Below, one piece after another: positions 3,340 through 42,621 of a stretch of DNA of 64,000 bases. The position numbers were made by a program, and so were the translations under genes. The first letter of the stretch is position 1. Each line of letters starts with the position of its first letter. The notes under the pieces are model-generated. The model was not told where the DNA came from, did no database searches, and saw only the letters and a list, made by a program, of their open reading frames with translations. Where the stretch lies: assembly GCA_016871335.1 (NCBI GenBank), contig VFZF01000009.1, positions 34,267-98,266 on the forward strand. The letters run 5' to 3'. The DNA is from Acidimicrobiia bacterium (GTDB taxonomy: Bacteria; Acidobacteriota; Vicinamibacteria; Vicinamibacterales; SCN-69-37).

Positions 3340-3640
3340 ATTGACACCATGGGGATCATGAGGATCCATGGGGATGAGGGGTTGAGTGCCGCTTAAGCGG
3401 CACGGTGAGGGGAGGGAGGAGCGCAAACGAAAACACCTGTTGGCGCGCTCAACCCCAGCGTGCCCTACATGTTTGAGAGGTACTTTCGCTTACGCTCCTC
3501 CCTCCCCTCACTGCGCCCGGCCTTGCCGGGCGCTCAACCCCGTGGCTTCGGACAGGGGCATCCTCATGGCTCTCCATGTGCTTCATGGTGAGAATTCACT
3601 GCCCCGGTGCCTCCATGGTCTCATTGTGAACCTGGCACCT
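3340..3640. repeat. BIME-like block of nested palindromes and REP copies
   Basis: Contains an 18-bp perfect palindrome gtgccgcttaagcggcac (3386-3403). A 19-nt perfect inverted repeat gtgaggggagggaggagcg (3405-3423) pairs with 3493-3511. There is a hairpin gcgcccgg-ccttg-ccgggcgc (3513-3533) and three GGGGTTGAG-type REP cores. ATGRGGA tandem units sit at both ends in inverted orientation. Confidence 0.8.
3443..3469 (-). repeat. REP-like hairpin, reverse orientation
   Basis: ggcgcgct-caacccc-agcgtgcc-ctac, with one stem mismatch. It lies inside the 3340-3640 block. Confidence 0.7.
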
Positions 3641-10668: not shown

Positions 10669-13530
10669 ATGAAGCGCCTGATGACCGTGACCCGACCGGG
10701 AGCCGTCGCCGTCGGACTTGTCGCTGCCCTCTGGCTTGCGCCACGGGTGGAGGGACAGCAGGGCGGGCGCGGAGCACAGACGCCGCCTCCGCCGCCGACA
10801 CTCGGCCTGGAGGACGGTACCCTCGACTTCGACACGCTGGACTTCACACTCAAGCTGGTCAAGGCGTCCCAGACGATCGCGGCGCTCGAGCCCAAGGGCG
10901 TGCCGACGTACACGCCGACACCGACGCCGCCCCGTGGTGGCCGGGGCGCGGGGGCGGCCGGTGCGGCCCCCACCCAGCCGCCACCACCGCCGCAGCCGAC
11001 CGGGCCATTGACCTTCGACTTCACACCTGCCGATCGACTCGCGCAGCGCGCTGCGAACGACTACCACCACCTCGGCGATCTGACCTTCAAGGTGCGTCAG
11101 GCCGGCACCGCCGAATGGAAGGATTACGACACGGCGCGTGATCGCAAACCCGTCGCGGCGCTGACACCCGCCGCCGGCACCCTCGCGTCATCGGATCTCG
11201 CCGCGACGCTGCCGGCGGATGTGCCGCTGCGTGTGACCCGGCATTGGGCGCTCGTGAACGGGAAGGTGGTGCTTCGCTTCGAGGTCACCAACCGGACGCC
11301 GCAGTCCGTTGAGATTGGCGCACTCGGGATTCCCGTCGTGTTCAACAACCTGATCACCGGACGCAATCTCGAACAGGCACACGAGATCACGTCGTTTTTT
11401 GATCCGGCCATCGCGCAGGATGCGGGCTTCGTGCAGGTCACGCGCCTCTCGGGCAAGGGCCCGGCGCTTGTGGTCGTGCCGCATGGCCGCACCCCACTTG
11501 AGGGATGGCGGCCCGTGGACGACCGCACGCCGCGCACACAAACCTCGGAAGCCATCTTCGAATGGATGGCCCACACGAAGGCCTACGCCGAGAACGAGTG
11601 GAAGAACGCGCAGCCGTGGCAGGTGCCGACGCACGCCACACTGGCGCCCGGGCAAACCCGCACGTACGGTCTCGAGTTTCACATCGCACCCGAGATTCGC
11701 GCGATCGAAGACACACTCGTGAAGGCCGGCCGTCCGGTGGCCGCAGGCTTCCCGGGCTACGTGGCCCCGATGGATCAGGACCTCCGACTGTTCGCGCGGT
11801 ACGGCTCACGCACCGCGAAGGTCTCGGTGTCTCCGTCCGGCGCACTCGAGGTGACCGCCGGTCGCCGTAGCACGAATGGCTGGCGCGAGTTCACGGTGCG
11901 CGGTCGCCAGTGGGGCCGGGCCCGCCTGACGCTCACCTGGGATGACGGTGCCGTGCAGGCGATCAACTATTACGTGACGAAGCCGGCGGCGCAGGCGGTC
12001 GCCGACCTCGGCAACTTCCTCCTCACCAAACAGTGGTTCGACAAGCCGGACGACCCGTTCAAGCGAAGTCCGTCAGTCATGAGTTACGACCGTTCCAAAA
12101 ACGCCATCGTCGAGCAGGACCACCGCGCGTGGATCGCAGGCTTGTCGGATGAAGGCGGCGCAGGGTCGTGGCTGGCCGCGGCGATGAAACAATTCGGACA
12201 GCCGTCGCGCGCGGAACTCGGGAAGTACGAACGCTTCGTCAACGAGGTGCTCTGGGGACGTATTCAGTACTCGGACGGGGAGCGGAAGTACGGCGTCCGC
12301 AAGAGCCTGTTCATGTACGTGCCTGAGGACTTCCCCAATTTCACCTACGACCCGTCGAAGAACTGGACGACGTGGGCGAGTTGGAACCGCGCAGGATCCG
12401 AGACTCAGAATCGCGCCTACAACTACGCGCACGTGGTGGCCGCGTACTGGTCGATGTATCGCATCGCCCGCAATACGGAAGGCCTGGTGACGACGCATCC
12501 GTGGGATTGGTACTTGAACCAGGCGCACGAAACGATGATGTACATGACGGACGCGGCGAACCGCGTCGGGTATGTCAACGTCGGCCTGATGGGCGCGACG
12601 ACGTTTGCGATGGTGCTCGAAGACATGAAGCGCGAAGGGTGGACCGAAAAGTCGTCCGCCCTAGAGGCGCGGATGAAGACGCGGGCGGACCGGTGGGCCG
12701 GCCAGAGTTATCCCTACGGCAGCGAAATGGCGTGGGACTCGACGGGGCAGGAAGAAGTCTTCGCGTGGATGCGCTACTTCGGGTACGACACGCAGGCGAC
12801 CACGGCGCTGAACTCGATCGTCGGCTACATGCCGCTGGTGCCGCACTGGGGCTACAACGGCGCTGCGCGTCGCTACTGGGACTTTATTTACGCAGGGGCG
12901 CCGGGTGCGGGCTACGAACGGCAGCTCCACCACTACGGATCAGGGCTCAACGCGATTCCGGCTCTGACGCGCTTCAGGGATGATCCGCAGGATCTGCACC
13001 TGCTCCGCATTGGGTATGCCGGCACGATGGGCGCGCTGACCAACATCGACGAGGAAGGGTTTGCGTCAGTGGCCTTCCATGCGTTCCCCGAGAAGCTCCA
13101 TTGGGATGCGTACAGCGGCGACTACGGGCCGAACTTCCTCGGACACGCGCTCAACACCGGGATGTATCTGATCAACCATCCGGAGTTCGGATGGCAGGCG
13201 TTTGGCGGCAACGCCACCGTGAACGGGTCTCGTGTCACCGTGAAGGTGGCCGACTCCTTCCGCCAGCGGATCTATCTCGCGCCGGTGGGGTTGTATCTCA
13301 CACTGGATGCCGGGCAGTTTGAGCAGGTGGAGTTTGATGCCGCCAGCGGGCGGGTGCGGGTGACGCTCGCGTCGTCATCGACCCATGTGAAGCAGGCGCG
13401 CCTGCGGGTGGAGCAGACGGGCAAGACCGTCGCCCGCCGCGAGTGGACCGTGCCTGGCGGATTCACGCTCGAACGTGGTGCCTACACCGTACCGCTTACG
13501 GCATCATCGCGCACGATCGAAGTTCGCTGA
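10669..13530 (+). CDS. large secreted protein, DUF5695-like, putative glycan-active enzyme
   Basis: ORF 10663..13530. The ATG at 10669 lies 9 nt after GAGGAG (10654-10659). There is a signal peptide and then a Pro/Gly-rich low-complexity stretch. The DUF5695 assignment is from memory of that family and is unverified. Confidence 0.7.
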   Translation: MKRLMTVTRPGAVAVGLVAALWLAPRVEGQQGGRGAQTPPPPPTLGLEDGTLDFDTLDFTLKLVKASQTIAALEPKGVPTYTPTPTPPRGGRGAGAAGAAPTQPPPPPQPTGPLTFDFTPADRLAQRAANDYHHLGDLTFKVRQAGTAEWKDYDTARDRKPVAALTPAAGTLASSDLAATLPADVPLRVTRHWALVNGKVVLRFEVTNRTPQSVEIGALGIPVVFNNLITGRNLEQAHEITSFFDPAIAQDAGFVQVTRLSGKGPALVVVPHGRTPLEGWRPVDDRTPRTQTSEAIFEWMAHTKAYAENEWKNAQPWQVPTHATLAPGQTRTYGLEFHIAPEIRAIEDTLVKAGRPVAAGFPGYVAPMDQDLRLFARYGSRTAKVSVSPSGALEVTAGRRSTNGWREFTVRGRQWGRARLTLTWDDGAVQAINYYVTKPAAQAVADLGNFLLTKQWFDKPDDPFKRSPSVMSYDRSKNAIVEQDHRAWIAGLSDEGGAGSWLAAAMKQFGQPSRAELGKYERFVNEVLWGRIQYSDGERKYGVRKSLFMYVPEDFPNFTYDPSKNWTTWASWNRAGSETQNRAYNYAHVVAAYWSMYRIARNTEGLVTTHPWDWYLNQAHETMMYMTDAANRVGYVNVGLMGATTFAMVLEDMKREGWTEKSSALEARMKTRADRWAGQSYPYGSEMAWDSTGQEEVFAWMRYFGYDTQATTALNSIVGYMPLVPHWGYNGAARRYWDFIYAGAPGAGYERQLHHYGSGLNAIPALTRFRDDPQDLHLLRIGYAGTMGALTNIDEEGFASVAFHAFPEKLHWDAYSGDYGPNFLGHALNTGMYLINHPEFGWQAFGGNATVNGSRVTVKVADSFRQRIYLAPVGLYLTLDAGQFEQVEFDAASGRVRVTLASSSTHVKQARLRVEQTGKTVARREWTVPGGFTLERGAYTVPLTASSRTIEVR

Positions 13531-13535
13531 TTGAA

Positions 13536-13562
13536 GTAGGGCGCGCTGGGTGTGAGCGCGCC
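13536..13562 (+). repeat. REP-like hairpin, forward orientation
   Basis: gtag-ggcgcgct-gggtgtg-agcgcgcc with a perfect 8-bp stem, 6 nt after the stop of the preceding gene. Confidence 0.8.
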
Positions 13563-13580
13563 AGTTTGGGAGAGAGACCT

Positions 13581-16500
13581 ATGCACCGCATCCTGATTGC
13601 CCTCTCGCTGGTCGTGTCGGCCATCGTCGTTGCCGTCGCGCAGAACCAGCAGAACGCCGCGCAGGGCGGTGACCAGTTTCTCGATGGCATCGGGGAGACC
13701 GGTCTCATCGCCCGGTATCAGTTCAACGGGAGTCCGGAAGACTCCTCCCGCAACCAGTTGCATGCGACCTTGCGAGGCACGAGTCCGGTGTTCGTCGAAG
13801 ACGGCACCCGCCGCGTGCTGTTGCTGACCGGCGACGGCAGCTACGTGCAGCTGCCGGCGGAGGCGTTTGATGGGGAGGATGCGGTTGCCGTTGTCGGGTG
13901 GCTGTATCTGCCGACACGCGCCACCGGACCGGTGTTTGACTTCGGCCAGAACGCGGCTTCGCGGTTGTATGCCGTGGTGGACGGGCAGGGCTTCCGCGCC
14001 ACGGCGGTGGTGGATGGTCAGGTGAAGGGCACCACCACGCCGAAGGTGGTTGTAGAGAACCAATGGACACACTTTGCGGTCGTGCTCGATCCCGCCAGCC
14101 GTGTGCTCACCGCGTACATCGATGGTGTCCGTGCGGGGCAGGCGACGGATGTGGCCGCGACGCCGGATCAACTAGTGCCGCCGTCGTTGTCCACCAACCG
14201 CCTGTTCCTCGGCCGGTCGCAGGATGACGCCGCGCCGACGCTGCACGGGCGATTCCGGGATGTGCGCCTGTATCGCATCGCGCTCGGGGACGAGCCCATC
14301 GCGACCATCCGCCGCAACGCGATCGCGGCGACACAGACGGCGCAGGGGCGCGGGCGCGCCGGGGCGCCGCCGGAGATCTCCACCGCCAACATCCCCCGTG
14401 AATCGCCGTTTGCCGCGCGATTGGTCTCCGTGCCCGACATCACCGTCGAGACGGTGGCGGGGTACCTGCCGCTGCTGCCGGCACAGATTCCGGCGACCTT
14501 CGCGGGTGGTGTGGCAGGCAACGCGCGTGCGATCTGGCCGTCGCCCACCGACAACGAGCAGGTGCGGCAGCCGGGCACGTACACGGTGTCGGGCATGGTG
14601 CCCGGCACACGGTTCCAGCCGAAGGCGACGGTGATCGTGAAGGCACCAGTGGGCGTGCAGACACCGCCTGAGCGGCTCGTCGAGGCGTTCTCCCTCGACC
14701 GCGTCGTCTTGAACAAGGACACTCAGGGACGCGACACCGCGTTCATCCAGAACCGTGACAAGTTCCTGCGCGGACTCGCGGCCACCAACCCCGACAGTTT
14801 CCTCTATAACTTCCGCGACACGTTCGGCGTGCCGCAGCCGGAGGGCACACGGCCGCTGCAGGGCTGGGACAACCAGACCACGCGGCTTCGTGGTCATGCA
14901 AGTGGCCACTACCTGACGGCCATCGCGCAGGCGTATGCGAGCACCGGCTACGACCCGGCGCTGCAGGCGACGTTCCTCCAGAAGATGAACTACCTGGTGG
15001 ACACGCTGCATGACCTGTCACAGCGGTCGGGCCGGCCGGCGCAGCCCGGTGGGCCGTCAGTCGCGGATCCACGCGCGGTGCCTGTGGGACCAGGCCGGCA
15101 GAGTTACGACTCGAATCTGCGCGCAGAGGCGATTCGTACGGATTATTGGAACTGGGGCACGGGGTTCATCAGTGCGTATCCGCCGGACCAGTTCATCATG
15201 CTCGAACGTGGTGCGACCTACGGCACGCAGGACAGCCAGATTTGGGCGCCGTACTACACGTTGCACAAGATCCTCGCCGGTCTGCTTGACACGTATGAGG
15301 TCGCCGGCAACAAGAAGGCGCTGGAGATTGCGCGCGGCATGGGGGCGTGGGTGCAGGCGCGGCTGAGTGCGCTGCCGCCGGAGACCCGTATCAGCATGTG
15401 GAACCGGTACATCGCCGGCGAATACGGCGGCATGAACGAAGGGATGGCGCGGCTGTACCGGTTGACGGGGGAGCGCCGGTTCCTCGACACGGCGAAGTTG
15501 TTCGACAACACGAACTTCTTCTTCGGCAACGCCGCGCACGACCACGGGCTGGCGAAGGGTGTGGACACGGTGCGGGGCAAACACGCGAACCAGCACATTC
15601 CGCAGATTACCGGTGCGCTCGAGACGTTCCGGAACACGAAGGAGATGCCCTACTACATGATCGCCTCGAACTTCTGGGAGATCGTGAACGGCGGCTACAT
15701 GTACAGCATCGGCGGCGTGGCCGGCGCGCGCAACCCGAACAACGCCGAATGTTTCACCGTGCAACCGAACACGTTGTGGGACAACGGCTTCGCGCAGGGA
15801 GGCCAGAACGAAACATGTGCGACCTACAACCTGCTGAAACTCGATCGGCAGCTGTTCATGTACGACCAGACCGCCAAGTACATGGACCACTACGAGCGCG
15901 CGATGTACAACCACATCCTCGCGTCGGTGGCGGAAGGCGACGCGGGCAACACGTATCATGTGCCGCTCAACCCCGGCGCCCAGAAACGGTTCGGCAACGC
16001 GAACATGAACGGGTTCACGTGTTGCAACGGCACCGCGCTTGAGAGCCACACCAAGCTGCAGGACACGATCTACTTCCACAGTGCGGACCACTCCGCGCTG
16101 TATGTCAACTTGTTTGTCCCGTCCACGGTGAACTGGACGGAACGGAAGGTGTCCGTGCAGCAGATCACGGACTTTCCCAGCGCCGACACGACCCGGCTGG
16201 TCGTGAAGGGCAGCGGACGGTTTGACATCAAGGTGCGCGTGCCCGGCTGGGCCACGCGCGGATTCTTCGTGACGGTCAACGGCCGCCAGGAAAACGTCAC
16301 CGCCACTCCGGGCAGCTACCTGACGCTGTCGCGCACCTGGCGCGATAACGACACCATTGAATTGCGCATGCCGTTCAAGTTTCACCTCGATCACCTCGTG
16401 GATCAGCCGAACGTCGCCAGTCTCCTGTGGGGACCGGTGCTTCTCGCCGCCGAGGAACCGGCCGCGCGCACCGACTGGCGCCAGATGACCTTTGACGTGA

Positions 16501-22977: not shown

Positions 22978-23640
22978 CTATCTGACTCCCGCGTCGCTCA
23001 CGACCCAGCCGTCGTCTGATCGGCGGAGGCGTGCGGTGGCTTCCTGGGGCTTTGCTGGCGTGTAGCCGACCAGCTCGGCCATCTCTGTCGGCGTCCACTG
23101 CCAGGTATAGTTCACAGCCACCAAGCCGCCGCGCTCGGACCGGATGTCGGTCACGTCCACCACTTCACGCGTCGCGATGTCGATGGGCATGTCGAACTGG
23201 ATGCCCGCGGCCGTGCCCTTCGGCGTCAGCGTGGTGCGCACCATGGCCAGGCGCACCTGGCCACTCATGTAGCCGCTCTGCCTGGACTGTGCGTGCACCG
23301 CATCACACGACGGATCCGGCGATCGCCCGGCTGGATTAAACGGAAACTCCTTGAGCTCGACGCGGACGACGCCGGCAATCGCCGCGTCAAACAGCGGCGC
23401 CTTGTCTTTTACGTTCTGCAACATCTCCACGAAGTCCACCTGACCAAGGTTTGCGAAGGAAAAGTCGGGATTCGTCGTCATGCAGTACGTCGCCGCCGGC
23501 AGCGTGCTGGTGCGCGTCGACTCAATCGCCGTCGACACCGCTGTGGCCGCTTCCTGGTTCGTCGGGACGCTCGCGCCGCAGCCAGCCACAAGCAGCAACG
23601 TTGCCGTGAGCGCAAAGAAGGATGAGTGTCGTCGTGGCAT
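22978..23640 (-). CDS. lipoprotein of unknown function (220 aa)
   Basis: ORF 22978..23892 was trimmed to Met at 23640, which is preceded by AAGGGAG. It has the lipobox LLLVAGCG. I recognise no family. Confidence 0.65.
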   Translation of the reverse strand: MPRRHSSFFALTATLLLVAGCGASVPTNQEAATAVSTAIESTRTSTLPAATYCMTTNPDFSFANLGQVDFVEMLQNVKDKAPLFDAAIAGVVRVELKEFPFNPAGRSPDPSCDAVHAQSRQSGYMSGQVRLAMVRTTLTPKGTAAGIQFDMPIDIATREVVDVTDIRSERGGLVAVNYTWQWTPTEMAELVGYTPAKPQEATARLRRSDDGWVVSDAGVR

Positions 23641-23695
23641 GGGCGTCTCCCTTGGTCGGGGGCAATTGTAGTTCGCACACAAAAGAAAAGAGCCC

Positions 23696-23837
23696 TTCAT
23701 GTTCCCGCACCCGCCTTCGACTACGCTCGGGCCGCCCCGAGGGCTTCTCCGTCCACGTCTTCCTCGACGATCACGAGCGGACGACCGCTGCGCGTTCCCG
23801 GCTCGAGAAGGAGGGAGGCGGTCGTTCATCGACGAGA
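23696..23837 (-). pseudogene. groEL-derived fragment, copy 1
   Basis: 23743-23837 aligns by eye (roughly four-fifths identity) to functional groEL 28399-28492 in the same orientation. It is preceded by the 29-nt junction repeat (23713-23741) and a weak groEL-tail-like stretch. Confidence 0.6.
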
Positions 23838-24008
23838 GGTTTGCACGCACGGTGCCTTGTGCGGCCGTCAGCGCCGCGCTGCCATCTGGCATCTGGGGTT
23901 ATCGCCGAGAGCTCAGTTCCCGGGCGAAAAGGAAAATAAACGGCCAGCGGAGACGTGACATCGGGACGATCGGGACCACCGGTTCGGATAAGGTGCAGCT
24001 GCGAAGGG

Positions 24009-25499
24009 TCATCGCCCCGAGATGCCCACCAGTTGTGACCCGTTCTTGCCCGGTGTGGCGGCGCCGCCCGGTTTGAACGTCTTTCCCTTTGGCTCATCGG
24101 GGTCGCAGCCGCCTGCCAGGCGGCAGGCGATGTAGGCCGCGGCTCGCGCCAGCCTTGTGAAGTGGTTGTCGAGCCACTTGGCTTTCGCATCGGCACTCGA
24201 ACCGAGTGCGGCCTTGACGCCCTTCTGGTAGTGCCCGGTGTCGGAGAGATTGTCGACGTCCTTCTGCGAGGGCGCCTTGTATTTGTCCATCTGCCGCTTG
24301 GCATCCTTGTAGCGCGATGCGGCATCAGCGTAGCGTGACGACGAGCCGCGGGCCTGGGCGCGCGGCGCCGCCGAGGGCCCGCTGGCGCCGGTGGCCACGT
24401 CGGCGTCACGCGCAGCCATGTCCTCGACCTCCCCGTTGCCCGTCATGCGCCCCGCAAACGTCCAGCCCTCACGCTCAATCGTGAACGACTCGTCACGCCC
24501 GTCAACGCGCAGCCGTGCCGTGACGCGGCGGAAGGGGTAGCCCCGCAGGTCGGGTTCCCCGGGGATGACCAACGGTGCCACCTGATCGTCGTATTCGACC
24601 TCCGTGGCAAAGCCGTCGGCACCACGAAGGCTGGTGATGCGTCCCCGGTCGTCTCTCACCACGTCCGTGGCCTCGGGCAGCACGATGTCTACGCGGGTCC
24701 TCGCATAGCCCTCCGGGTGGAGGCGCAGCAGGTAGCTCCCGCTCATCGACCAGCGTCCGGCCGGAATGTCGCGGTCGTTCGGGGTGGGATCAGGCTCGCG
24801 GTCGGGCACCGCGGCGGCTGCCTGCTCGGCATAGCTGGCTCCCGTGGCCAACAGGTCGCGCAGGCGTGCCTCGGTCTCGAGCAGCGTCTGCAGCGGCTGA
24901 GGCAGCCGGGGCAGTACACGGTCGCGCACGGCCTGCGAGGCGCGTTCCTTCACGTTCGCCTCGATCGTGGCGATGTCTTGTGCCGTAAGAAGGACGTCAG
25001 CCGCGCGCCGCGGCCCGGGCGGCAGGCTCGAATACCGCGCGTGCGCGAGCACGGCCCAAATCAGGGACTGGATGTCCTCCTGGGGGATCTGCGGGGTGGT
25101 CGACGCCCGTTCAAGCAGGCGGGTCACGATGGCGGCATGCGTGCCGGTGAGCGCCGGCGAGTAGAGATAGCCGTCGCCGACGCGCGGTCCCGGCTTCCCG
25201 GCATACAGGCAGTAGGTTTCGAGCGTGGCCGACCAGGCACCCGGGGGGACCGCAAACCCTCCCTCCGCATCGCGCGGCAGCGAGCGCAGATCGCCGAAGC
25301 CCCACGGCTCGGGCTCATCAGCTTCGGGGTCGTCGTCCAGCGCCGGCACATCACGGGCGACTGTGGCAGTGCCATTCGTCAGGCCAGGCGTAGTCGAGAA
25401 CCATCGGCCGAGCAGATCCTGTGCGTGCGTGAGCGAGGCCAGGCTCATCACGATGGCCACGAGGAGGGGCAGCAAACCACCTGAGCGGGACGCCAGCAT
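24009..25499 (-). CDS. secreted protein of unknown function (496 aa)
   Basis: ORF 24009..25604 was trimmed to Met at 25499 (MLASRSGGLLPLLVAIVMSLASLTHAQ). It has an acidic stretch DDDPEADEPEPW and a Lys-rich C-terminal about 130 aa. I recognise no family. Confidence 0.7.
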   Translation of the reverse strand: MLASRSGGLLPLLVAIVMSLASLTHAQDLLGRWFSTTPGLTNGTATVARDVPALDDDPEADEPEPWGFGDLRSLPRDAEGGFAVPPGAWSATLETYCLYAGKPGPRVGDGYLYSPALTGTHAAIVTRLLERASTTPQIPQEDIQSLIWAVLAHARYSSLPPGPRRAADVLLTAQDIATIEANVKERASQAVRDRVLPRLPQPLQTLLETEARLRDLLATGASYAEQAAAAVPDREPDPTPNDRDIPAGRWSMSGSYLLRLHPEGYARTRVDIVLPEATDVVRDDRGRITSLRGADGFATEVEYDDQVAPLVIPGEPDLRGYPFRRVTARLRVDGRDESFTIEREGWTFAGRMTGNGEVEDMAARDADVATGASGPSAAPRAQARGSSSRYADAASRYKDAKRQMDKYKAPSQKDVDNLSDTGHYQKGVKAALGSSADAKAKWLDNHFTRLARAAAYIACRLAGGCDPDEPKGKTFKPGGAATPGKNGSQLVGISGR

Positions 25500-25610
25500 G
25501 GCTGAAATCCTACCAAACCAGAGCCCCCGGAGGTGCGGCCTGGGGGCGAGACCGGAGTGCTGCGGTCTTTTCTTGATGCGTGTCTGAAGACGGCGCTGAA
25601 TCAACAGGCG

Positions 25611-26489
25611 CTACTTCCTGATCAGTTCCACGCGACGGTTGCGGGCGCGACCCTCGTCAGTCGAGTTGTCAGCCACGGGTTGCGTGCCCCCGAATCCTGA
25701 CGTGGTCAGCCGTCCGTCGTCGATGCCGGCCTGCACGAGCGCCGCTTTCACCGCGGCGGCGCGTTCCCGGGATAGTGCCAGGTTCGCGGCGGCCGCTCCG
25801 ACGTTGTCTGTGTGTCCCTGAATCTCGATGACGAGGGCGGCATCGGCTTTCAGTGCGTCAGCAATCAGCGTCAGGGTGGCGGCTGACGCCGGCTGGATTG
25901 TGGACTTCCCGGTGTCAAACAGAATGTCGCGAATCGCCACGCTGCCGGTGCTTCGAATCGCTGCCGCCAGTGACTCCGCGGTGAAGACGACGTCCTGGGC
26001 CATGGTTGATTCCTGAACGATTTCGAGCGTATACATCTCGCCGCCGTTGCTGACGCGCACCTCGAGCCAGATGGTGCCGGCGCCCTGCACAGGCAGGCGT
26101 GCGATTGTTGTGCCGCCGCTGGGATCGAGGGCCTCGAGCAGCAACGCCCCACCCCGCTGGCGAATGAGATTGGTGTAGTTGCGTCCGATCTGCAGCGGGC
26201 CGGGCTTGCGGACGCCTTCGTTGAGCACGTATTGGATGCTCCAGTAGTGACCCTCCACCTTCCGCTCCGGGTCAAGGCTGAAATCGAAGGACGAGAATTC
26301 CTGCTCGTCGTAGTTGTTGATATAGAAACCAGGCATCCGTGAAAACACTGGATGGTCCTTGGAGCCTTCGGCATCGGCTTCCTGGGCATCAACCGGACCG
26401 GCCAGCGCTACCAAGAACCCGATGGCGATCGGGATGCTCAACCACAGGCGTGGAGTGGCACGCGGGGCAGACGATGTAAAGACAGGCAT
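25611..26489 (-). CDS. OmpA-family protein with DUF4892-like N-terminal domain
   Basis: ORF 25611..26630 was trimmed to Met at 26489 (signal peptide ...ALAGPVDAQ). The C-terminal OmpA_C motifs are FDTGKSTI, GHTDNVG, LSRERAAAV and NRRVEL. The N-terminal domain assignment is from memory. Confidence 0.85.
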   Translation of the reverse strand: MPVFTSSAPRATPRLWLSIPIAIGFLVALAGPVDAQEADAEGSKDHPVFSRMPGFYINNYDEQEFSSFDFSLDPERKVEGHYWSIQYVLNEGVRKPGPLQIGRNYTNLIRQRGGALLLEALDPSGGTTIARLPVQGAGTIWLEVRVSNGGEMYTLEIVQESTMAQDVVFTAESLAAAIRSTGSVAIRDILFDTGKSTIQPASAATLTLIADALKADAALVIEIQGHTDNVGAAAANLALSRERAAAVKAALVQAGIDDGRLTTSGFGGTQPVADNSTDEGRARNRRVELIRK

Positions 26490-26642
26490 GGCGTCATCGT
26501 CGCCCCCCACGGCGCGGCTTGTCAACGGCCCCATGTCACTTGTCGGCGGGGTGCCAGGGTGGTGCAAAGAGGAGTCAGAACTTGTCGGCCAATTCCGAGT
26601 TGGCTCGACGGTGAACAACCCCGGCAGCACTAAGCACCGCTC

Positions 26643-26842
26643 TTAGTACATCCCACCCATTCCGCCGCCAGGCCTTCGGCTGCGCTCAGGCCGCCCCGAG
26701 CGTGTCGAGGGGCGGGAACGACCTGCGTGCGAATCTGCTTCACGCGACCTTCGATGGCGCCCTGCGTGCCGTCGCCTTCAACGATCGTCGTGTTGTCCTT
26801 GTCGATCGTGACCTTCTTGGCCTTGCCAGAGGTCCTCGAGCT
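26643..26842 (-). pseudogene. groEL-derived fragment, copy 2 (3' tail fused to an internal piece)
   Basis: 26643-26674 matches the last codons plus stop of groEL (27534-27565) at 30/32 by my count. 26720-26842 matches groEL 28114-28235 with 7 substitutions and a 1-nt insertion. The two pieces are joined by the 29-nt junction repeat (26672-26700). Confidence 0.75.
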
Positions 26843-26981
26843 GAGGCCCCCTAGCCAGCATCCTGCCGCAACACAGGTTCGGGACCCCGTGGCGCCACGT
26901 TGTCCGGCTGCGTCTGGCCTGGGTGTCTGGCGCCTCTGCGGAAAGACCACCGGGCGGGTGACGACGCGCTAAGATACGGAT

Positions 26982-27173
26982 GTGCCGAAAGTCCGGGAGG
27001 CGATTGCGCTCATCGAGACAGATGGCTGGCGCGTAGTGCGGACGAAGGGGAGCCATCGTCAATTCAAGCACCCCACGAAAGCCGGGCGCGTCACGGTGGC
27101 AGGGCATCCGTCGGACGACCTGGCCCCCGGGACGTTTAATAGCATTCTCAAGCAGGCAGGACTCAAGGAGTAG
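26982..27173 (+). CDS. hicA: type II toxin HicA (mRNA interferase)
   Basis: The 63-aa ORF (GTG start) contains GWRVVRTKGSHRQFKHP, typical of the HicA/YcfA family. Confidence 0.85.
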   Translation: MPKVREAIALIETDGWRVVRTKGSHRQFKHPTKAGRVTVAGHPSDDLAPGTFNSILKQAGLKE

Positions 27174-27175
27174 CG

Positions 27176-27391
27176 ATGCGCAGGTTTCTCATTGTGATCG
27201 AGCAAGCGGCGAACAATTTTTCCGCATACTCGCCAGACCTACCCGGCTGCGTCGCGACTGGGTCGACGCGCGAGGAAACCGAGCGGCGGATGTACGAGGC
27301 GATTCAGATGCACATTGAGGGACTGATTGAGGACAATCAGCCGGTGCCGTCGTCGACGTCGTTTGCGGAATTCGTCGTCGTGCCCGCATAA
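27176..27391 (+). CDS. hicB: type II antitoxin HicB (UPF0150-like)
   Basis: The 71-aa ORF starts 2 nt after hicA. FSAYSPDLPGCVATGSTREE is typical of the HicB N-terminal domain. Confidence 0.8.
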   Translation: MRRFLIVIEQAANNFSAYSPDLPGCVATGSTREETERRMYEAIQMHIEGLIEDNQPVPSSTSFAEFVVVPA

Positions 27392-27429
27392 GGGGCCGGC
27401 GATTCCCTCACCCAGCATCAAACTCAGGC

Positions 27430-27463
27430 AAAAAAGAGGCCCAGCAGCTTTCGCCACCGGGCC
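27430..27463 (-). terminator. intrinsic terminator of groEL
   Basis: The minus strand reads GGCCCGGTGGC-GAAA-GCTGCTGGGCC-TC-TTTTTT. This is an 11-bp stem with G-U pairs followed by a U-tract, about 70 nt downstream of the groEL stop. Confidence 0.6.
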
Positions 27464-27497
27464 CTGAGTCAAACCGAGTGTGAGGGTGGGACTGAAA

Positions 27498-27533
27498 TCC
27501 TCAGTCCTCAATCCTCATTCCTCAATTCGTTCG
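27498..27533 (-). repeat. 4 x 7-nt NTGAGGA array (plus 2 x CGAA) in the groEL 3' UTR
   Basis: The plus strand is tcctcag/tcctcaa/tcctcat/tcctcaa/ttcg/ttcg, directly abutting the groEL stop (27534-27536). The mRNA sense is CGAACGAA-TTGAGGA-ATGAGGA-TTGAGGA-CTGAGGA. Confidence 0.8.
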
Positions 27534-29487
<1,954 letters not shown>

Positions 29488-29536
29488 GTGTGTATGCTCC
29501 GTGGACTGTTGTTTCGGTCCTGTTTGGGCGGTAATG

Positions 29537-29586
29537 CTGGCACTCAGGTCCCCTGAGTGTTAGCACTCCGCGTGACCGACTGCTAA
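29537..29586 (-). promoter_or_regulatory. CIRCE (HrcA operator), two overlapping copies
   Basis: The best copy is 29560-29586, TTAGCACTC-N9-GACTGCTAA, which matches the consensus TTAGCACTC-N9-GAGTGCTAA at 17/18. A weaker copy is 29537-29563, CTGGCACTC-N9-GAGTGTTAG. Both lie between the promoter and groES. Confidence 0.8.
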
Positions 29587-29627: not shown

Positions 29628-29808
29628 GGGTTCATCGGTTCATCGGTTCATGGCTCATGGTGCTGTTCCTGGAACCCGGGTTCTTGGGTGCAGGGTTCTG
29701 GGTTCGAGGTGCGGGGAACCCGGCACCGACCCTGCACCCGGAACCCGATACCCGGAACCCCGGTTCCAGGAACGGCACTGCTGAACCATGAACCGATGAA
29801 CCATGAAC
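29628..29808. repeat. about 180-bp composite imperfect palindrome built from GGTTCATS octamers and GGGTTC/GGAACC units
   Basis: The left arm is gggttcatcggttcatcggttcatggctcatggtgctgttcctggaacccgggttc... The right arm is ...gaaccccggttccaggaacggcactgctgaaccatgaaccgatgaaccatgaac. The arms align as reverse complements over about 85-90 nt, centred near 29718. Confidence 0.8.
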
Positions 29809-36447: not shown

Positions 36448-37836
36448 ATGGCTGTCATTCTCATCGTTGACGACGAAGCGGGCGTGCGATCGTCGCTGGC
36501 CGGCGTCCTGCGGGACGAGGGGTACCAGGTCGACACCGTCGACAGTGGGGAGGCCTGTCTCGAGCAGGTGCGGCGCAAGGCGTACGACGTGTTGCTGCTC
36601 GACATCTGGCTGCCCGGCCTTGATGGTCTGGACACGCTGGAACAGTTGCGTGCGAGGGGGCTGGAGGCCGAGGTCATCATGATCTCCGGCCACGGCAACA
36701 TTGAAAATGCCGTGCGCGCGACCAAACTCGGCGCGTTTGATTTCATCGAGAAGCCGCTCTCGCTTGAGAAGACCGTGCTGGTAGTGCGCAATGCCATCCG
36801 CCAGCACCAGCTCGAAGTGGAGAACCGCGCGCTGCGGGCCCGCGTCGATCGCCGCTTCGTCATTGTTGGCGAGAGTTCGGCGATTGGCCGGCTCCGGGAA
36901 CAGATTGCGATGGCCGCGCCGACCAATGGCCGCGTCCTGATTTCGGGGGAGAACGGCACCGGCAAGGAACTGGTCGCGCGGCACATCCATCTGCTGAGTC
37001 AGCGGCAGGAGAAACCGTTCATCGAGGTGAACTGCGCCGCGATCCCGGAAGAACTGATCGAATCGGAGCTGTTTGGACACACCCGGGGCGCGTTTACGGG
37101 GGCCGTCGCCGACCGGCGCGGCAAGTTCGAACTGGCGCACAGCGGCACGTTGTTTCTCGACGAGATTGGGGACATGAGCCTGAAGACGCAGGCCAAGGTG
37201 TTGCGTGCGCTGCAGGAGCAGGTCATTGAACCGGTGGGGGGGCAACACAGCGTGCGCGTGGACGTGCGCATCATTGCCGCGACCAACAAGGACCTGCTCG
37301 ACGAAATTCGCGCGGGCCGGTTCCGCGAGGACCTGTTCTTCCGGTTAAACGTGATCCCGATTCACGTCCCGCCCCTGCGCGAGCGCGGGGATGATGTGGT
37401 GCTGCTGGCGCGGCATTTCATCACTGAGATTGCGCGGGAGTACGGGCGGCGGCTGAAGCAGCTGACGCCCGAGGCGGAGGCGGTCCTGCGCGCCTTCCGC
37501 TGGCCCGGCAACGTGCGCGAACTGCGCAACGTGATCGAGCGCGTGATGATCATGGTGCCCGGCGAGCAAATTTCCGCCGCCGACCTGGCGTTCCTCGGCG
37601 TGTCGTCGCCCGCTCATGTGCGGGGCGTCGGCGCAGCATCGCTGCTGCCGGCGTCGGAGGTGCTGCCGCTCTACAGCGCGCGCGACGACTGGGAACGCGA
37701 ATACATCCGCGCCGCCCTTGCCGCCTGCGACGGCAACATCTCACGCACGGCGGATGTGCTCGGCGTTGAGCGGTCCAATCTCTACAGGAAGATGAAAGGG
37801 CTGGGACTGGAGCCCTCCCGGATGGGCGGTACGTAG
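36448..37836 (+). CDS. sigma-54-dependent Fis-family response regulator (NtrX/NtrC-like)
   Basis: It has a receiver domain (ILIVDDE...DVLLLDIWLPGLDG), an AAA+ domain (GENGTGKE, GAFTGA, ESELFGH) and a C-terminal HTH. Confidence 0.9.
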   Translation: MAVILIVDDEAGVRSSLAGVLRDEGYQVDTVDSGEACLEQVRRKAYDVLLLDIWLPGLDGLDTLEQLRARGLEAEVIMISGHGNIENAVRATKLGAFDFIEKPLSLEKTVLVVRNAIRQHQLEVENRALRARVDRRFVIVGESSAIGRLREQIAMAAPTNGRVLISGENGTGKELVARHIHLLSQRQEKPFIEVNCAAIPEELIESELFGHTRGAFTGAVADRRGKFELAHSGTLFLDEIGDMSLKTQAKVLRALQEQVIEPVGGQHSVRVDVRIIAATNKDLLDEIRAGRFREDLFFRLNVIPIHVPPLRERGDDVVLLARHFITEIAREYGRRLKQLTPEAEAVLRAFRWPGNVRELRNVIERVMIMVPGEQISAADLAFLGVSSPAHVRGVGAASLLPASEVLPLYSARDDWEREYIRAALAACDGNISRTADVLGVERSNLYRKMKGLGLEPSRMGGT

Positions 37837-37859
37837 GGCGCCCTGGGGTTCAGGGCGCC
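37834..37859 (+). repeat. REP-like hairpin, forward orientation
   Basis: tag-ggcgccct-ggggttc-agggcgcc. The TAG (37834-37836) is the stop codon of the response regulator. Confidence 0.8.
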
Positions 37860-37864
37860 AATCT

Positions 37865-37890
37865 GGCGCGCTGCAGTTCAGCGCGCCCTA
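37865..37890 (-). repeat. REP-like hairpin, reverse orientation
   Basis: ggcgcgct-gcagttc-agcgcgcc-cta. The cta (37888-37890) is the TAG stop of the convergent formimidoyltransferase gene. Confidence 0.8.
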
Positions 37891-38778
37891 CGCGCGCAGC
37901 GCGTTCTCCAACACCTGGGCGTCCGTGAAGTCCGAGACCTGGAGGAACCAGGCGGCGGACTGGGTGAGCGCGGCTGAGGGCACCAGGCCGATGATTTCGC
38001 TTTCGAGCACCGCGACACCGTACCGGGCGGCTTCGCGTTTGACCGTCTCGAAGACGCGGTAGAGCGGCGTCTTTTCGTAGTTGGTCAGGTTCATCGAGAC
38101 CTGCACGATGCCGCGGTCTTCCAGCGCGAGGCCCATGGCCTTCACGTAGCGGAAGCCGCCGGAGCTGTGGCGCACGGCGTTGGCGATCTTCTTGGCGACG
38201 TCGAGACGATCGGTGGCCAGGTTGATGTTGTAGGCAATGAGCGGCATCCGCGCGCCAACCACTGCGGCACCTGCCGAGGCGTGTGCGGCCGCCGGTCCGA
38301 AGTCAGGGGCCCACTCAGGTTTGGCGATCTTGGTGGCGAGGCCCTCAAACTCTCCGCGACGGATGTCCTCCAGGTTCCTTCGGGCGGAGGAGGACGCCGC
38401 TTCTTCATACAGATAGATCGGCAAGGCGTGTTTCGAGGCGACCTGGGCGGCGACCTCCTTTGCCAGAGCCACGCAATCGGCCATCGTGGCGCCCTCGATG
38501 GGCACAAACGGCACCACGTCCACGGCGCCCAGCCGCGGATGTTCCCCCTTGTGTTCGCGAAGATCGATCGCCGCCACCGCCCGGTCGAACAGCGCCAGTG
38601 TGGCGGCCTTCACCTCGGCGGGTGAGCCGGCATAACTGAAGACCGTCCGGTGGTGCGTCCCATCAGGCTTCACGTCGAGCAACTTCGCTCCCGCTGCCTG
38701 AATCGCCGCCGCACACGCGTCCAGCACGTCCTGCCGTCGCCCTTCGCTGATGTTCGGAATGCACTCGATGATGGCCAT
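37888..38778 (-). CDS. glutamate formimidoyltransferase
   Basis: ORF 37888..38949 was trimmed to MAIIECIPNISEGRR at 38778 (alternative Met at 38787). The sequence is typical of the FtcD N-terminal formiminotransferase domain. The longer extension reads through a tandem repeat. Confidence 0.85.
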   Translation of the reverse strand: MAIIECIPNISEGRRQDVLDACAAAIQAAGAKLLDVKPDGTHHRTVFSYAGSPAEVKAATLALFDRAVAAIDLREHKGEHPRLGAVDVVPFVPIEGATMADCVALAKEVAAQVASKHALPIYLYEEAASSSARRNLEDIRRGEFEGLATKIAKPEWAPDFGPAAAHASAGAAVVGARMPLIAYNINLATDRLDVAKKIANAVRHSSGGFRYVKAMGLALEDRGIVQVSMNLTNYEKTPLYRVFETVKREAARYGVAVLESEIIGLVPSAALTQSAAWFLQVSDFTDAQVLENALRA

Positions 38779-38795
38779 CGGGATCATTCTACGGT

Positions 38796-38957
38796 AGTGC
38801 TGGGTGCTGGGTGCTCGGTGCTCGGTGCGAAGTGCTTCGTGCGCGCCGGGTGCCGCACTGAGCACCCGGCACCGGGCACCCGGCACCGGGCACCCAGCAC
38901 CGGGCACCCAGCACCGGGCACCCAGCACCGGGCACCCAGCACCGGGCACCCAGCACG
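38796..38957. repeat. composite inverted repeat of heptamers, including 6.8 copies of a 14-nt unit GCACCCRGCACCGG
   Basis: The left arm has gtgctgg x2, gtgctcg x2, then gtgcgaa/gtgcttc/gtgcgcg. The right arm has gcacccggcaccgg x2 and gcacccagcaccgg x4 plus a partial unit (38862-38956). It sits in the divergent intergenic region between the starts at 38778(-) and 39013(+). Confidence 0.85.
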
Positions 38958-42543: not shown

Positions 42544-42566
42544 GGCGCACTGGGTTGGAGTGCGCC
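42541..42566 (+). repeat. REP-like hairpin, forward orientation
   Basis: tag-ggcgcact-gggttgg-agtgcgcc. The TAG is the cinA stop codon. Confidence 0.8.
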
Positions 42567-42571
42567 GAGTT

Positions 42572-42598
42572 GGCGCGCTCAAACCCAGCGCGCCCTAC
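42572..42598 (-). repeat. REP-like hairpin, reverse orientation
   Basis: ggcgcgct-caaaccc-agcgcgcc-ctac. It forms a head-to-head pair with the previous copy. Confidence 0.8.
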
Positions 42599-42621
42599 GT
42601 TTGGTCATAGAATTGGAGTTC

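Follow-up and report, generated by a model that had tools for sequence, protein, structure and literature searches.

Probable relics of groEL and a dispersed palindromic repeat in a gene-insertion hotspot downstream of groEL in a Vicinamibacteria-like bacterium

The two groEL-derived fragments and the 29-nt repeat found downstream of groEL in the 64-kb stretch of DNA analysed here (the window) are probably decayed partial copies of groEL, left behind by repeated insertions downstream of the gene, and part of a dispersed palindrome, respectively. We place the probability of this reading, ordinary debris throughout, at roughly 0.78, and under it the odd groEL pattern is no more than the remains of earlier insertions at a hotspot. 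The groEL relics and the palindrome, hereafter E, belong to familiar classes, relics of an insertion hotspot in one case and a REP/MITE-like repeat in the other, and represent no new functional device. The locus nevertheless documents a hotspot downstream of groEL for Vicinamibacteria-like Acidobacteriota, in which truncated copies of an essential chaperonin arise repeatedly, and it adds a previously uncatalogued palindromic repeat of ~47 nt that occurs across soil, sediment and lake metagenomes. It also carries a caution for annotation: the ORF across fragment B, E and the groEL tail, called as a gene in one assembly, is spurious.

Organization of the locus

The window reads in the order groEL, terminator, hicBA with a spacer (X), relic R2, ompA with a 496-aa gene, relic R1 and lipoprotein gene (Table 1). 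R2 is composed of fragment B, E and a duplicated groEL end (the tail), and R1 of fragment A, half of E and a possible terminator vestige. The fragments, the tail and both copies of the 29-mer are all on the minus strand, in the sense orientation relative to groEL.

Table 1. Features of the groEL-lipoprotein interval and its flanks (positions in the window).
Feature	Position	Strand	Description
groES	29191-29487		Upstream of groEL; Pfam Cpn10
Functional groEL (543 aa)	27534-29165	-	Pfam Cpn60_TCP1; protein 96-99% identical to relatives' groEL
groEL intrinsic terminator	27437-27464	-	GGGCCCGGTGGCGAAAGCTGCTGGGCCT then T-run (terminator scan); conserved left edge of the hotspot
Cargo 2: hicA / hicB toxin-antitoxin pair	26982-27173 / 27176-27391	+	Pfam HicA_toxin, HicB_lk_antitox
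Spacer X	26843-26981	-	Between hicA and R2; last ~14 nt, ggggcctcagctcgag, a vestige of groEL nt ~694-706
Fragment B, R2 core	26719-26842	-	groEL nt 932-1054, 1-nt insertion
Complete E copy	26670-26716	-	nhmmer E-value 4e-13, model positions 3-49; aligned with 11 unrelated loci
Duplicated groEL end (tail), part of R2	26643-26674	-	groEL nt 1601-1632 including the stop codon
R2 post-stop spacer	26614-26642	-	Allele type gagcggtgcttagtgctg..., unlike the spacer after functional groEL
Cargo 1a: OmpA-family gene (292 aa)	25611-26489	-	Pfam OmpA
Cargo 1b: 496-aa gene	24009-25499	-	No Pfam domain
Fragment A, relic R1	23740-23837	-	groEL nt 674-770, 1-nt insertion
Half E	23713-23741	-	Upper stem, loop and right arm; nhmmer E-value 1e-6, model positions 19-47 only
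Possible decayed R1 terminator	23680-23712	-	Leads into conserved sequence upstream of the lipoprotein gene
Lipoprotein gene (220 aa), conserved	22978-23640	-	Right edge of the hotspot; homologues in relatives

Blocks of conserved genes (purC-HTH_8-groES-groEL and lipoprotein-M28) are retained in relatives, and the cargo in between differs every time. Homologues of the lipoprotein gene (83-85% nucleotide identity) follow groEL and variable cargo in L022-L028, L022-L027 retain the terminator sequence 3' of groEL, and the interval holds distinct cargo in each of L022, L023, L024, L025 and L026-28. Yet another gene set lies upstream of the lipoprotein gene in L029, whose contig ends short of groEL, and what lies downstream of groEL in L031 and L033 is different once more. 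The relatives' cargo includes toxin-antitoxin pairs, IS elements, transporters and surface proteins; according to precomputed domains, IS3, IS21 and IS91 transposases are present in it and no tyrosine or serine integrase adjoins groEL. Gene order across these relatives shows the interval from groEL and its terminator to the lipoprotein gene to be a gene-insertion hotspot of the Vicinamibacteria-like lineage. Between genomes, divergence in the 3' half of groEL exceeds that in the 5' half by a factor of 3-4, as would be expected if the 3' half were co-transferred with the downstream cargo. This provides evidence that, in the Vicinamibacteria-like relatives, the 3' half of this common phylogenetic marker is exchanged more often than the 5' half.

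The cargo of the window has relatives of its own. The hicBA cargo (~90% nucleotide identity) also follows groEL in L031 and L033-L036. Homologues of ompA (78-89% nucleotide identity) were found in three other contexts, with homology limited to positions 26528-25602, and the 496-aa gene, encoding a secreted protein to which Pfam assigns no function, had one relative in the genome-collection scan (77%), again with homology confined to the gene. Since these homologues lie elsewhere in the relatives and the homology ends at the gene edges, ompA and the 496-aa gene are foreign to the groEL site.

Two groEL relics of different age

Blastn of positions 23600-27000 against the window located two groEL-derived sense fragments and the 29-mer where the initial annotation had placed them, to within 1-3 nt at most, and the similarities of the fragments, the tail and the 29-mer are significant, far beyond chance. 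Fragment A matches groEL at 28396-28492 with 85.7% identity (13 substitutions and a 1-nt insertion; E-value 7e-26). Fragment B matches positions 28112-28234 with 93.5% identity (E-value 4e-48), with the 7 substitutions and 1-nt insertion counted before, and the tail matches positions 27534-27565 at 30/32, stop codon included, also as described. Each fragment (97 and 123 nt) carries a 1-nt frameshift, and neither is a functional groEL paralogue. No further groEL sequence was detected in the window by tblastn, and a reading in which fragment B would reach upstream as far as 26944 was rejected, the tblastn alignment there having no real similarity.

The fragments differ in their decay. Private substitutions amount to 12 in 97 nt in fragment A versus 2 in 123 nt in fragment B (Fisher p = 0.0015); the codon changes of fragment A relative to groEL are 4 synonymous and 7 non-synonymous, and fragment B differs from the groEL of the window by 6 synonymous changes and 1 conservative one. 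Fragment A is a relic distinct from fragment B and, to judge from this decay, appears to be the older of the two. Fragment B is nearer to the groEL of relatives (119/123) than to that of the window (116/123), with five of its seven differences being states present in the relatives' functional genes. The tail shares window-specific states with the functional groEL copy and differs from it only at third codon positions; for fragment B and the tail together, 8 of 9 differences from the window's groEL are at third positions (p = 0.001). Furthermore, positions 26625-26669 match, at 95.6% identity, the sequence that ends functional groEL and follows its stop codon in L033 and L034, and the post-stop allele type of R2 is the one found 3' of functional groEL in L033; this spacer is then fused to what reads, by eye only, as a terminator end. 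The tail and the 5' part of R2 may come from different groEL copies, which would make R2 composite.

These data bear on a single groEL2 paralogue that decayed in place downstream of groEL and was split by the insertion of ompA and the 496-aa gene. Bacteria often have more than one groEL gene, and both fragments are sense-oriented groEL pieces downstream of groEL, as such a history would predict. However, the order is wrong, with the 3' pieces (fragment B and tail) upstream of the 5' piece (fragment A); groEL nt ~694-706, a stretch included in fragment A, is also present as a separate vestige in R2; the two fragments have decayed to significantly different degrees; and the relatives have only 5'-truncated groEL copies at this site, never an intact second gene. 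We regard a split paralogue as very unlikely, and the earlier argument against simple decay of one paralogue is sustained by two relics of different age that each contain groEL nt ~694-706.

The junctions themselves are identical in four independent assemblies, namely a JGI contig (L001), two sister samples (L006 and L016) and a Logan contig (L002), which share 99.6-99.99% identity. The window is a metagenome contig, and the Logan contig starts in the part of fragment B that has the longest exact match to groEL, a pattern that might result if groEL pieces of co-occurring strains had been stitched into one contig. Such a chimera is almost certainly not the explanation: the same junctions recur in the independent assemblies, and homologous relic structures exist in unrelated samples (L031, L033-L036). 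An assembly artefact was rejected for this reason.

Truncated groEL copies in relatives

Long 5'-truncated groEL copies are found at this position in L023, L025, L031 and L033. In L023, a groEL 3' copy of 872 nt (99.8% identical to its own groEL) is accompanied by a terminator copy; in L025, L031 and L033, the relic begins at groEL nt ~697-709 and comes with a ~160-nt MITE, and both this MITE and an IS3 element lie within the homologous relic of relatives. Second terminator copies are located at cargo flanks in L023, L024, L025 and L026, and the lipoprotein gene has a 691-nt duplication in L022. The repeats that flank the cargo vary accordingly, from the terminator only (27-42 nt) to 872 nt and >900 nt, relics at the site differ in extent or are absent among the relatives, and no constant att core was found at both island ends. 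Because relics start at groEL nt 674, ~695 and 761, they arose at least three times and at no fixed site.

For R2, L031 offers a direct comparison. It has groEL-hicBA-X followed by a relic spanning groEL nt ~697-1632, with X adjoining groEL nt ~697, and the homology of the window to L031 and L033 extends from hicB across X to position 26835/26836. The motif GCTCGAG occurs at groEL nt 702 and 933, the exact two ends of the segment absent from R2. The alignment shows that one deletion between these repeats in an L031-type relic yields the 5' junction of fragment B, and that the L031 relic represents a precursor of R2. The initial annotation would have counted against its own reading any relatives with an intact groEL2 at this position whose stepwise deletion yields both junctions; for fragment B this is largely borne out, by the long 5'-truncated copies in relatives and by the L031 deletion. 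The gap in R2 from groEL nt 1054 to about nt 1601 is filled exactly by E; two deletions may each have ended at the edge of E, or the whole segment may have been replaced at once.

For R1, no precursor could be identified. Fragment A occupies the place of the left arm, which is absent from half E. On the other side, backbone homology to L024 starts at position 23688, corresponding to the T-run of the second terminator copy of L024, and the similarity of positions 23689-23712 to the terminator is only suggestive and not significant (p = 0.10). A decayed groEL tail 3' of the half E was likewise not significant (p = 0.28) and was rejected.

The palindromic repeat E

E is an imperfect palindrome of ~47 nt with an 18-bp stem and a GCGG loop. 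The 29-mer at 26672-26700 is the loop and right arm of the complete copy, and the 18 nt between it and fragment B are its left arm rather than filler; the last bases of this copy overlap the start of the groEL tail homology. The identity of the 29-mers (23713-23741 and 26672-26700) is 26/29 by blastn, in agreement with the initial count. A degenerate pattern scan with up to three mismatches gave exactly two matches in 64 kb, as against at least two matches in 0/100 shuffles, so that the absence of the 29-mer from functional groEL also holds.

The E pattern matched 14 metagenome contigs, of which 11 were taken as independent loci. E (44-50 nt) is the sole sequence common to these otherwise unrelated loci, and the conservation extends to its left arm, which lay outside the search pattern. 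The loci contain no groEL sequence, contrary to the idea of a junction repeat special to groEL. Where flanks could be placed, E lies between predicted ORFs (two short contigs have a single or no predicted ORF), and each of these loci has a single copy that brackets nothing. With an nhmmer profile built from 12 E copies, two copies were found in the window and none in ~200 kb of the relatives' Vicinamibacteria-like loci; viral contigs and phage records gave no match, and Sphingomonas plasmids only two weak partial ones. There was no consistent target-site duplication at E, and at two loci the flanks simply prolong the palindrome. Its ends carry no conserved GTAG and read CCTCGAC ... GTCGAAGG rather than GTTRRRY, and integron attC core sites (RYYYAAC ... 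GTTRRRY) are lacking. E has no Rfam match, and no account of it was found in the literature searched. Its motif CTGAGC...GTCGAAGG appears to resemble widespread GC-rich palindromic repeats; LSLSKG and FDKLRANG are peptide strings from translated palindromic repeats. These loci show E to be dispersed, most plausibly a palindromic repeat of the REP/MITE kind and no product of groEL. A groEL piece or divergent paralogue C-terminus was rejected as the source of E, given that its three frames yield no GroEL-like product and the other loci have no groEL, and so was a native groEL 3' spacer or pre-terminator, for which local alignments of E or R2 against the pre-terminators of the window, L023 and L025 were not significant (p = 0.06-0.5).

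Canonical E folds at -21 kcal/mol (z = -3.6), and for the two copies in the window, shuffled sequence folds at least as well (z = +0.2 and +0.4). This affects the proposal that the fragments are maintained as regulatory elements, for instance as antisense or decoy RNAs directed at groEL mRNA, and that E serves as a structural or terminator module. In its favour, fragment B retains 93.5% identity to groEL and E can form a hairpin, but the fragments are sense-oriented, fragment A has its 12 private changes plus an indel, the window's E copies fold like shuffled sequence, and the relics of relatives are of other extent or missing. Neither a promoter-like site at the fragments (promoter scan) nor an Rfam match at E or the fragments (cmscan of 23400-27600, E-value up to 10) was found. 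We consider such a role highly improbable; the antisense or sRNA function suggested in the initial annotation is unsupported for frame-broken, decaying sense fragments, and no evidence implies a present-day function for them.

The two E copies are direct and bracket a 2.9-kb cargo, and a repeat this rare is present twice here; relatives have ompA and the 496-aa gene each in different surroundings, much like cassettes. The copies might then be the ends of a non-autonomous mobile unit (PATE/IS200-IS605-like or cassette-like) bearing both genes, with the adjacent groEL pieces picked up during imprecise mobilisation. Against this, copy 1 lacks a whole arm, a Pfam scan of ten genes in the 19.7-31 kb region revealed no transposase or integrase, the other ompA and 496-aa loci all lack E, the remaining E loci are single-copy, and the two cargo genes are unlinked in the one relative found to have both, lying on different contigs of the same MAG. 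A mobile unit bounded by E seems quite improbable. Independent random insertions of E are also unlikely, because E is rare and its copies, 3 kb from each other, both border on a groEL relic. Three groEL breakpoints adjoin E at CGAAG, the core of the E arm, and the right end of E abuts GGCCYGGYGGCG motifs; CGAAG occurs 16 times in groEL, and the clustering of breakpoints at it is a post hoc observation.

Origin of the relics

In the reading we favour, of debris from repeated insertions, each insertion would leave a 5'-truncated groEL 3' part and a terminator downstream of the new cargo. These non-functional copies would then erode by microhomology deletions and the acquisition of small repeats, and the window would hold two of them, nested by age. 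Insertion may have proceeded by one-sided or Campbell-type homologous recombination with the conserved groEL 3' end as anchor, a mechanism read from the repeat anatomy, since no circular intermediate or recombinase was identified. E lies where each relic has its internal deletion, and may have come there either through inheritance or gene conversion between homologous relics or, alternatively, through repeated joining at CGAAG and GGCCYGG microhomologies.

A bolder version, which we consider unlikely, is that the conserved groEL 3' end and terminator form an integrase-free landing pad. Cargo between direct groEL/terminator repeats would be released in circular form and re-enter other genomes by RecA-dependent single crossover, with E active in breakage and joining. 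If this were true, the junctions of relic and E would record a specific recombination process that recurs, not random decay.

Comparison with known systems

Horizontal-transfer hotspots and minimal mobile elements, as in Neisseria and at chromosomal hotspots, consist of variable cassettes between conserved core genes that are exchanged by homologous recombination. The locus resembles them in its conserved flanks (groEL with terminator, lipoprotein gene), a cargo that differs per relative and the lack of an integrase, but the cargo here is often flanked by direct target duplications of 27 nt to >900 nt. The truncated copies of an essential chaperonin left at the site imply events of the one-sided or Campbell type rather than clean double crossovers.

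In tandem island arrays at tRNA/tmRNA genes or gene 3' ends, a 3' piece of the target is displaced and left behind at every integration. The nested, same-orientation 3' relics, with the more decayed one farther away, and the intact target gene are shared with such arrays, whereas the absence of an integrase and a fixed att core, the variable relic starts and the lengths of up to hundreds of nt are not. Pseudogene erosion would be consistent with the deletion between GCTCGAG repeats, the 1-nt frameshift in each fragment, the MITE and IS3 in the relatives' relic and the microhomologies at E junctions; the one unusual point is the same rare palindrome at the deletion junction of both relics.

E itself resembles REP/REPIN sequences and small MITEs as a short imperfect palindrome, extragenic where placeable, in unrelated contexts and with full and half copies; its inverted arms are likewise a MITE feature. 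REP/REPIN sequences number tens to hundreds per genome; in the DNA covered here, E is low-copy, with two copies in the 64-kb window and none in the relatives' loci. Unlike REP/REPIN, it has no GTAG head, and no RAYT or other transposase was linked to it among the ten scanned genes. Unlike IS200/IS605 elements or PATEs, one copy is missing an arm and the bracketed genes encode OmpA and the functionally unassigned secreted protein, not tnpA/tnpB. A second palindromic family is present in the window, with full and half copies, and starts with GTAG.

Separate groEL relics downstream of groEL

Our comparison of window positions 23600-27000 with the whole window by blastn recovered all four similarities proposed in the initial annotation, namely two groEL-like fragments (A and B), a groEL tail and a pair of 29-mers, and each of them is real. 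In groEL coordinates, fragment A corresponds to nt 674-770, fragment B to nt 932-1054 and the tail to nt 1601-1632. The degenerate form of the 29-mer matched only its two sites in the 64 kb at up to three mismatches, and two or more matches occurred in 0 of 100 shuffled sequences. The window is a metagenome contig, and identical junctions recur in L001 (a JGI contig, 99.99% identical), in the sister-sample assemblies L006 and L016, and in an independent Logan assembly (L002), indicating that they are not assembly artefacts. The JGI samples of this population, Ga0194120, Ga0194127 and Ga0194129, are from Lake Tanganyika. The L016 assembly also lacks 8 nt (window 23127-23134) inside the conserved lipoprotein gene, a difference that reflects either a frameshift variant in the population or an assembly error.

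Features of the window and of the compared loci, with coordinates where available
Feature	Sequence	Position	Strand	Details
Lipoprotein gene (220 aa)	window	22978-23640	minus	
29-mer copies	window	23713-23741 and 26672-26700	minus	26/29 between copies (blastn)
Fragment A	window	23740-23837	minus	groEL 28396-28492; 85.7%, 13 substitutions + 1-nt insertion (blastn)
496-aa gene	window	24009-25499	minus	no Pfam domain
OmpA-family gene	window	25611-26489	minus	
groEL tail	window	26643-26674	minus	last 32 nt of groEL with stop codon, 30/32 (blastn)
Fragment B	window	26719-26842	minus	groEL 28112-28234; 93.5%, 7 substitutions + 1-nt insertion (blastn)
hicA + hicB	window	26982-27391	plus	
groEL	window	27534-29165	minus	
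groES	window	29191-29487	minus	
Second palindromic family, full hairpins	window	37832-37892, 42540-42600		
Second palindromic family, half copies	window	3439-3475, 13536-13563		single arms
MITE in relics	L025; L031; L033	4776-4936; 9429-9586; 283-440		three different metagenome lineages
Cargo	L022			DUF433/DUF5615 + duplicated lipoprotein gene
Cargo	L023			7.4 kb of unrelated genes
Cargo	L024			acyltransferase
Cargo	L025			IS3 element + others
Cargo	L026-28			copper ATPase
Genes upstream of lipoprotein gene	L029 (contig short of groEL)			IS21 element + other genes
Duplication	L022			lipoprotein gene, 691 nt
Duplication	L023			872-nt groEL 3' copy from nt 761, 99.8% to own groEL, + second terminator
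Duplication	L024, L026			second groEL terminator copy directly upstream of lipoprotein gene
Relic	L025			groEL nt 709 to stop codon + terminator; split by 161-nt MITE

The source names of homologous proteins place the organism in Acidobacteriota, near Vicinamibacteria/Vicinamibacterales. Relatives' loci, anchored on the lipoprotein gene, keep the backbone purC-HTH_8-groES-groEL-terminator ... lipoprotein-M28 peptidase, and the genes between the groEL terminator and the lipoprotein gene (the cargo) differ in every genome compared; duplicated target segments often border them. The window shows the same arrangement, with R1 (fragment A) and R2 (fragment B and tail) as nested relics, in the order groEL - terminator - (hicBA + X) - R2 - (ompA + 496-aa gene) - R1 - lipoprotein gene, where X is the spacer between hicA and R2. 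Homologues of ompA with 78-89% nucleotide identity occur in three other contexts, with homology ending at window 26528 and 25602, and the homologue of the 496-aa gene lies on a separate contig of the MAG whose ompA homologue sits elsewhere; both cargo genes are foreign to this site.

The N-terminus of the 496-aa protein resembles a signal peptide, and the species-representative genome collection yielded only one relative (77%). Contig L019 carries a 4.95-kb insertion (beta-propeller protein and TonB-dependent receptor) downstream of an ompA homologue, flanked by a direct duplication of the target of ~120 bp (10844-10963 and 15915-16034, versus 5977-6096 in the acidobacterial contig L020), an insertion of the same style as at groEL at a different locus. 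L019 (CAZXTM010000002) and L017 (CAZXTM010000012) belong to MAG GCA_964643765.1, deposited as 'uncultured Bifidobacteriaceae bacterium'; it carries genes with 77-84% identity to genes of this Acidobacteriota window, its ompA locus has the gene order of the acidobacterial contigs L020 and L021, and the label looks wrong.

The two relics differ in their degree of decay. Against the window's own groEL, fragment B shows differences at seven sites, six synonymous and one a Ser/Thr change, and for fragment B and the tail together 8/9 differences fall at third codon positions (p = 0.001). At 5/7 sites the state in fragment B is present in relatives' functional groEL, which it matches at 119/123 positions (116/123 for the window's own copy), and its private changes are limited to two substitutions and the indel. 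The greater part of its divergence thus accumulated in functional genes, not through decay. Fragment A carries 12 private substitutions in 97 nt, with seven non-synonymous codon changes, and is significantly more decayed (Fisher p = 0.0015). It also covers groEL nt ~694-706, of which R2 holds its own vestige. This overlap and the unequal decay identify R1 and R2 as separate relics, bearing out the earlier argument against simple decay of one paralogue. R1, the more decayed, presumably predates R2; its position closer to the lipoprotein gene is as expected for successive insertions beside an intact groEL. The relic start points vary (groEL nt 674, ~695 and 761), which argues against a site-specific integrase, and no integrase was seen among ten scanned genes of the 19.7-31 kb region.

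A precursor of R2

Loci reached through HicB homologues (L031 and L033-L036) included a close counterpart of R2. The hicB-hicA-X block of the window also follows groEL in L031, where ~90% homology to the window is unbroken from groES to window position 26835 and X is followed by a relic of groEL nt ~697-1632 with spacer and terminator, containing the MITE found in L025. This MITE (~160 nt, terminal inverted repeats of ~40 nt, CGTGTGCTGAGTCATGGATTCGC...) sits at the same groEL position, nt ~790, in the relics of L025, L031 and L033, which are thus homologous. Downstream of the groEL relic in L031, the cargo beside an IS91-family (Y2) transposase gene also contains scattered direct repeats (882-1011, 4244-4303, 8400-8472) that are 59-73 nt long and 98-100% identical.

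X adjoins ...CCCCTGCTCGAGCAGG (nt ~694-712) in L031 and ...ggcctcaGCTCGAGGACC (nt 932 onwards) in the window, and groEL carries GCTCGAG at nt 702 and again at nt 933. A deletion in an L031-type relic with these 7-nt direct repeats as its ends would produce the 5' junction of fragment B, and would take the MITE out as well. The initial annotation had considered stepwise deletion of an intact groEL2 as a competing explanation; deletion would account for this junction, but in a 5'-truncated relic rather than an intact gene. R2 is without groEL nt 1055-1600, and the gap is occupied by a palindromic element, E. The post-stop sequence of R2 (gagcggtgcttagtgctg...) is of the allele type that follows the functional groEL of L033 and L034 (95.6% over 45 nt), unlike the GAGGAATGAGG-type spacer of the window's functional groEL, so R2 may combine sequence from more than one groEL copy.

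The 29-mer is part of a dispersed palindromic element

JGI metagenome contigs were scanned with a 28-nt core of the 29-mer with three positions free. Among the 14 contigs matched, L006 and L016 represent the window's own population and L005 and L013 are identical to each other around the element, and the 11 independent loci carried into the analysis came from soils, sediments and other samples. The only sequence common to them is a 44-50 nt unit with the consensus CGCCCCTCGAC-(3-5 nt)-GCTCGGGGCGGCCTGAGCG-N-AGTCGAAGGCCG. This unit is the element E, an imperfect palindrome that has an ~18-bp stem closed by a GCGG loop; its left arm was kept in 11/11 loci although it lay outside the search pattern. 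Wherever the flanks could be placed, E lies between predicted ORFs. No groEL sequence was found in any of the 11 loci, and the junction repeat of the initial annotation is therefore not special to groEL.

The profile of E identified a complete copy at window 26670-26716, a half copy (upper stem, loop and right arm) at 23713-23741 and no others in the window; the 18 nt formerly read as filler beside the 29-mer are the left arm of the complete copy. A canonical copy of E has a folding energy of -21 kcal/mol (z = -3.6), and the two window copies showed no gain in folding over shuffled sequence (z = +0.2 and +0.4). E had no match in Rfam, was not found in viral contigs and phage records, had no description in the literature searched, and appears to be uncatalogued. 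An intergenic sequence, CTCGGTTCAGCCTGAGCGAAGTCGAAGGCCAAGGGG, on the Sphingomonas parapaucimobilis plasmid NZ_CP155751.1 (L030, 1500-1542) matches the right arm of E and the flank seen in locus L008, a sequence likeness that hints at E-like arms beyond Acidobacteriota. In L023 (1111-1150), a different GC-rich palindrome, CCCTGAGCGCGCGCCCATCGGGGCGCGCGTCGAAGGG (-17.7 kcal/mol, z = -3.5), forms an insertion relative to the window 4 nt past the functional groEL stop codon, and has CCTGAGCG / GTCGAAGG motifs in common with E.

Possible mechanism

In the common anatomy, cargo separates an intact groEL from a downstream 5'-truncated copy of the groEL 3' part with its terminator. This arrangement is expected where DNA with a 3' segment of groEL integrates by a single (Campbell-type) crossover, and equally from homology-anchored recombination with one illegitimate end. 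groEL is conserved enough to act as anchor (90-95% nucleotide identity here). We infer this insertion step; neither circles nor a recombinase were observed. Later erosion through microhomology deletions and inserted repeats is directly visible in the GCTCGAG deletion, in 1-nt frameshifts, and in the MITE and IS3 element in L025, L031 and L033.

Divergence of functional groEL between genomes is 3-4 times greater in the 3' half than in the 5' half. In the comparison of the window with L024, L025 and L022, the same 3-4-fold excess holds for the 3' 40%, from ~nt 950, over the 5' 60% (for example, 59/680 versus 20/951 differences against L025). This suggests that the 3' part is exchanged by recombination, is consistent with frequent exchange together with downstream cargo, and matters where groEL serves as a marker.

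The presence of E in both relics is unlikely to reflect two independent random insertions, because E is rare (two copies in the window, none in ~200 kb of relatives' loci). Possibilities include entry into one relic followed by gene conversion to the other, homologous relic, inheritance by both, or repeated joining at microhomology. The groEL breakpoints beside E, GGCGAAG (nt 761), GTCGAAG (nt 1051) and ACCGAAG (nt 1573), all resemble the E arm GTCGAAGG, a post hoc observation given that CGAAG occurs 16 times in groEL, and the right end of E adjoins GGCCYGGYGGCG-like motifs. Tests of E as an original part of the groEL 3' spacer, and of a groEL tail retained in R1 after E, gave no significant similarity.

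Functional significance and other repeats

Nothing points to a function for the fragments or for E. The fragments are sense-oriented with broken frames, fragment A is decaying freely and the window's E hairpins are degenerate, no promoter-like site was found in our scan and no RNA family matched, and relatives have different relics at this site, or none. In one assembly a 106-codon ORF (26630-26950) covering fragment B, E and the tail is annotated as a gene; this call is spurious. The arrangement adds a new case to known classes, namely insertion-hotspot relics and a REP/MITE-like repeat.

A second palindromic family, unrelated to E (GTAGGGCGCGCTGGGTT(T/G)GAGCGCGCC ..., stem ~26 bp), begins with GTAG like classical REP sequences, and its full and half copies indicate that palindromic repeats and their halves are normal in this genome. 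Upstream of groES, in window 29531-29569 and 29629-29802, a CIRCE-like inverted repeat, CTGGCACTC-N9-GAGTGTTAG, is surrounded by long nested inverted repeats of GGTTCAT / GGAACC units. Short simple-repeat arrays (GGTGCTC / GGCACCC; GAGGAATGAGGA; GGTCCAGGG; GGTTCCGCGG) fill intergenic spacers, including window 38797-38956, 27480-27525 and the post-groEL spacers of relatives, and vary among otherwise homologous loci.
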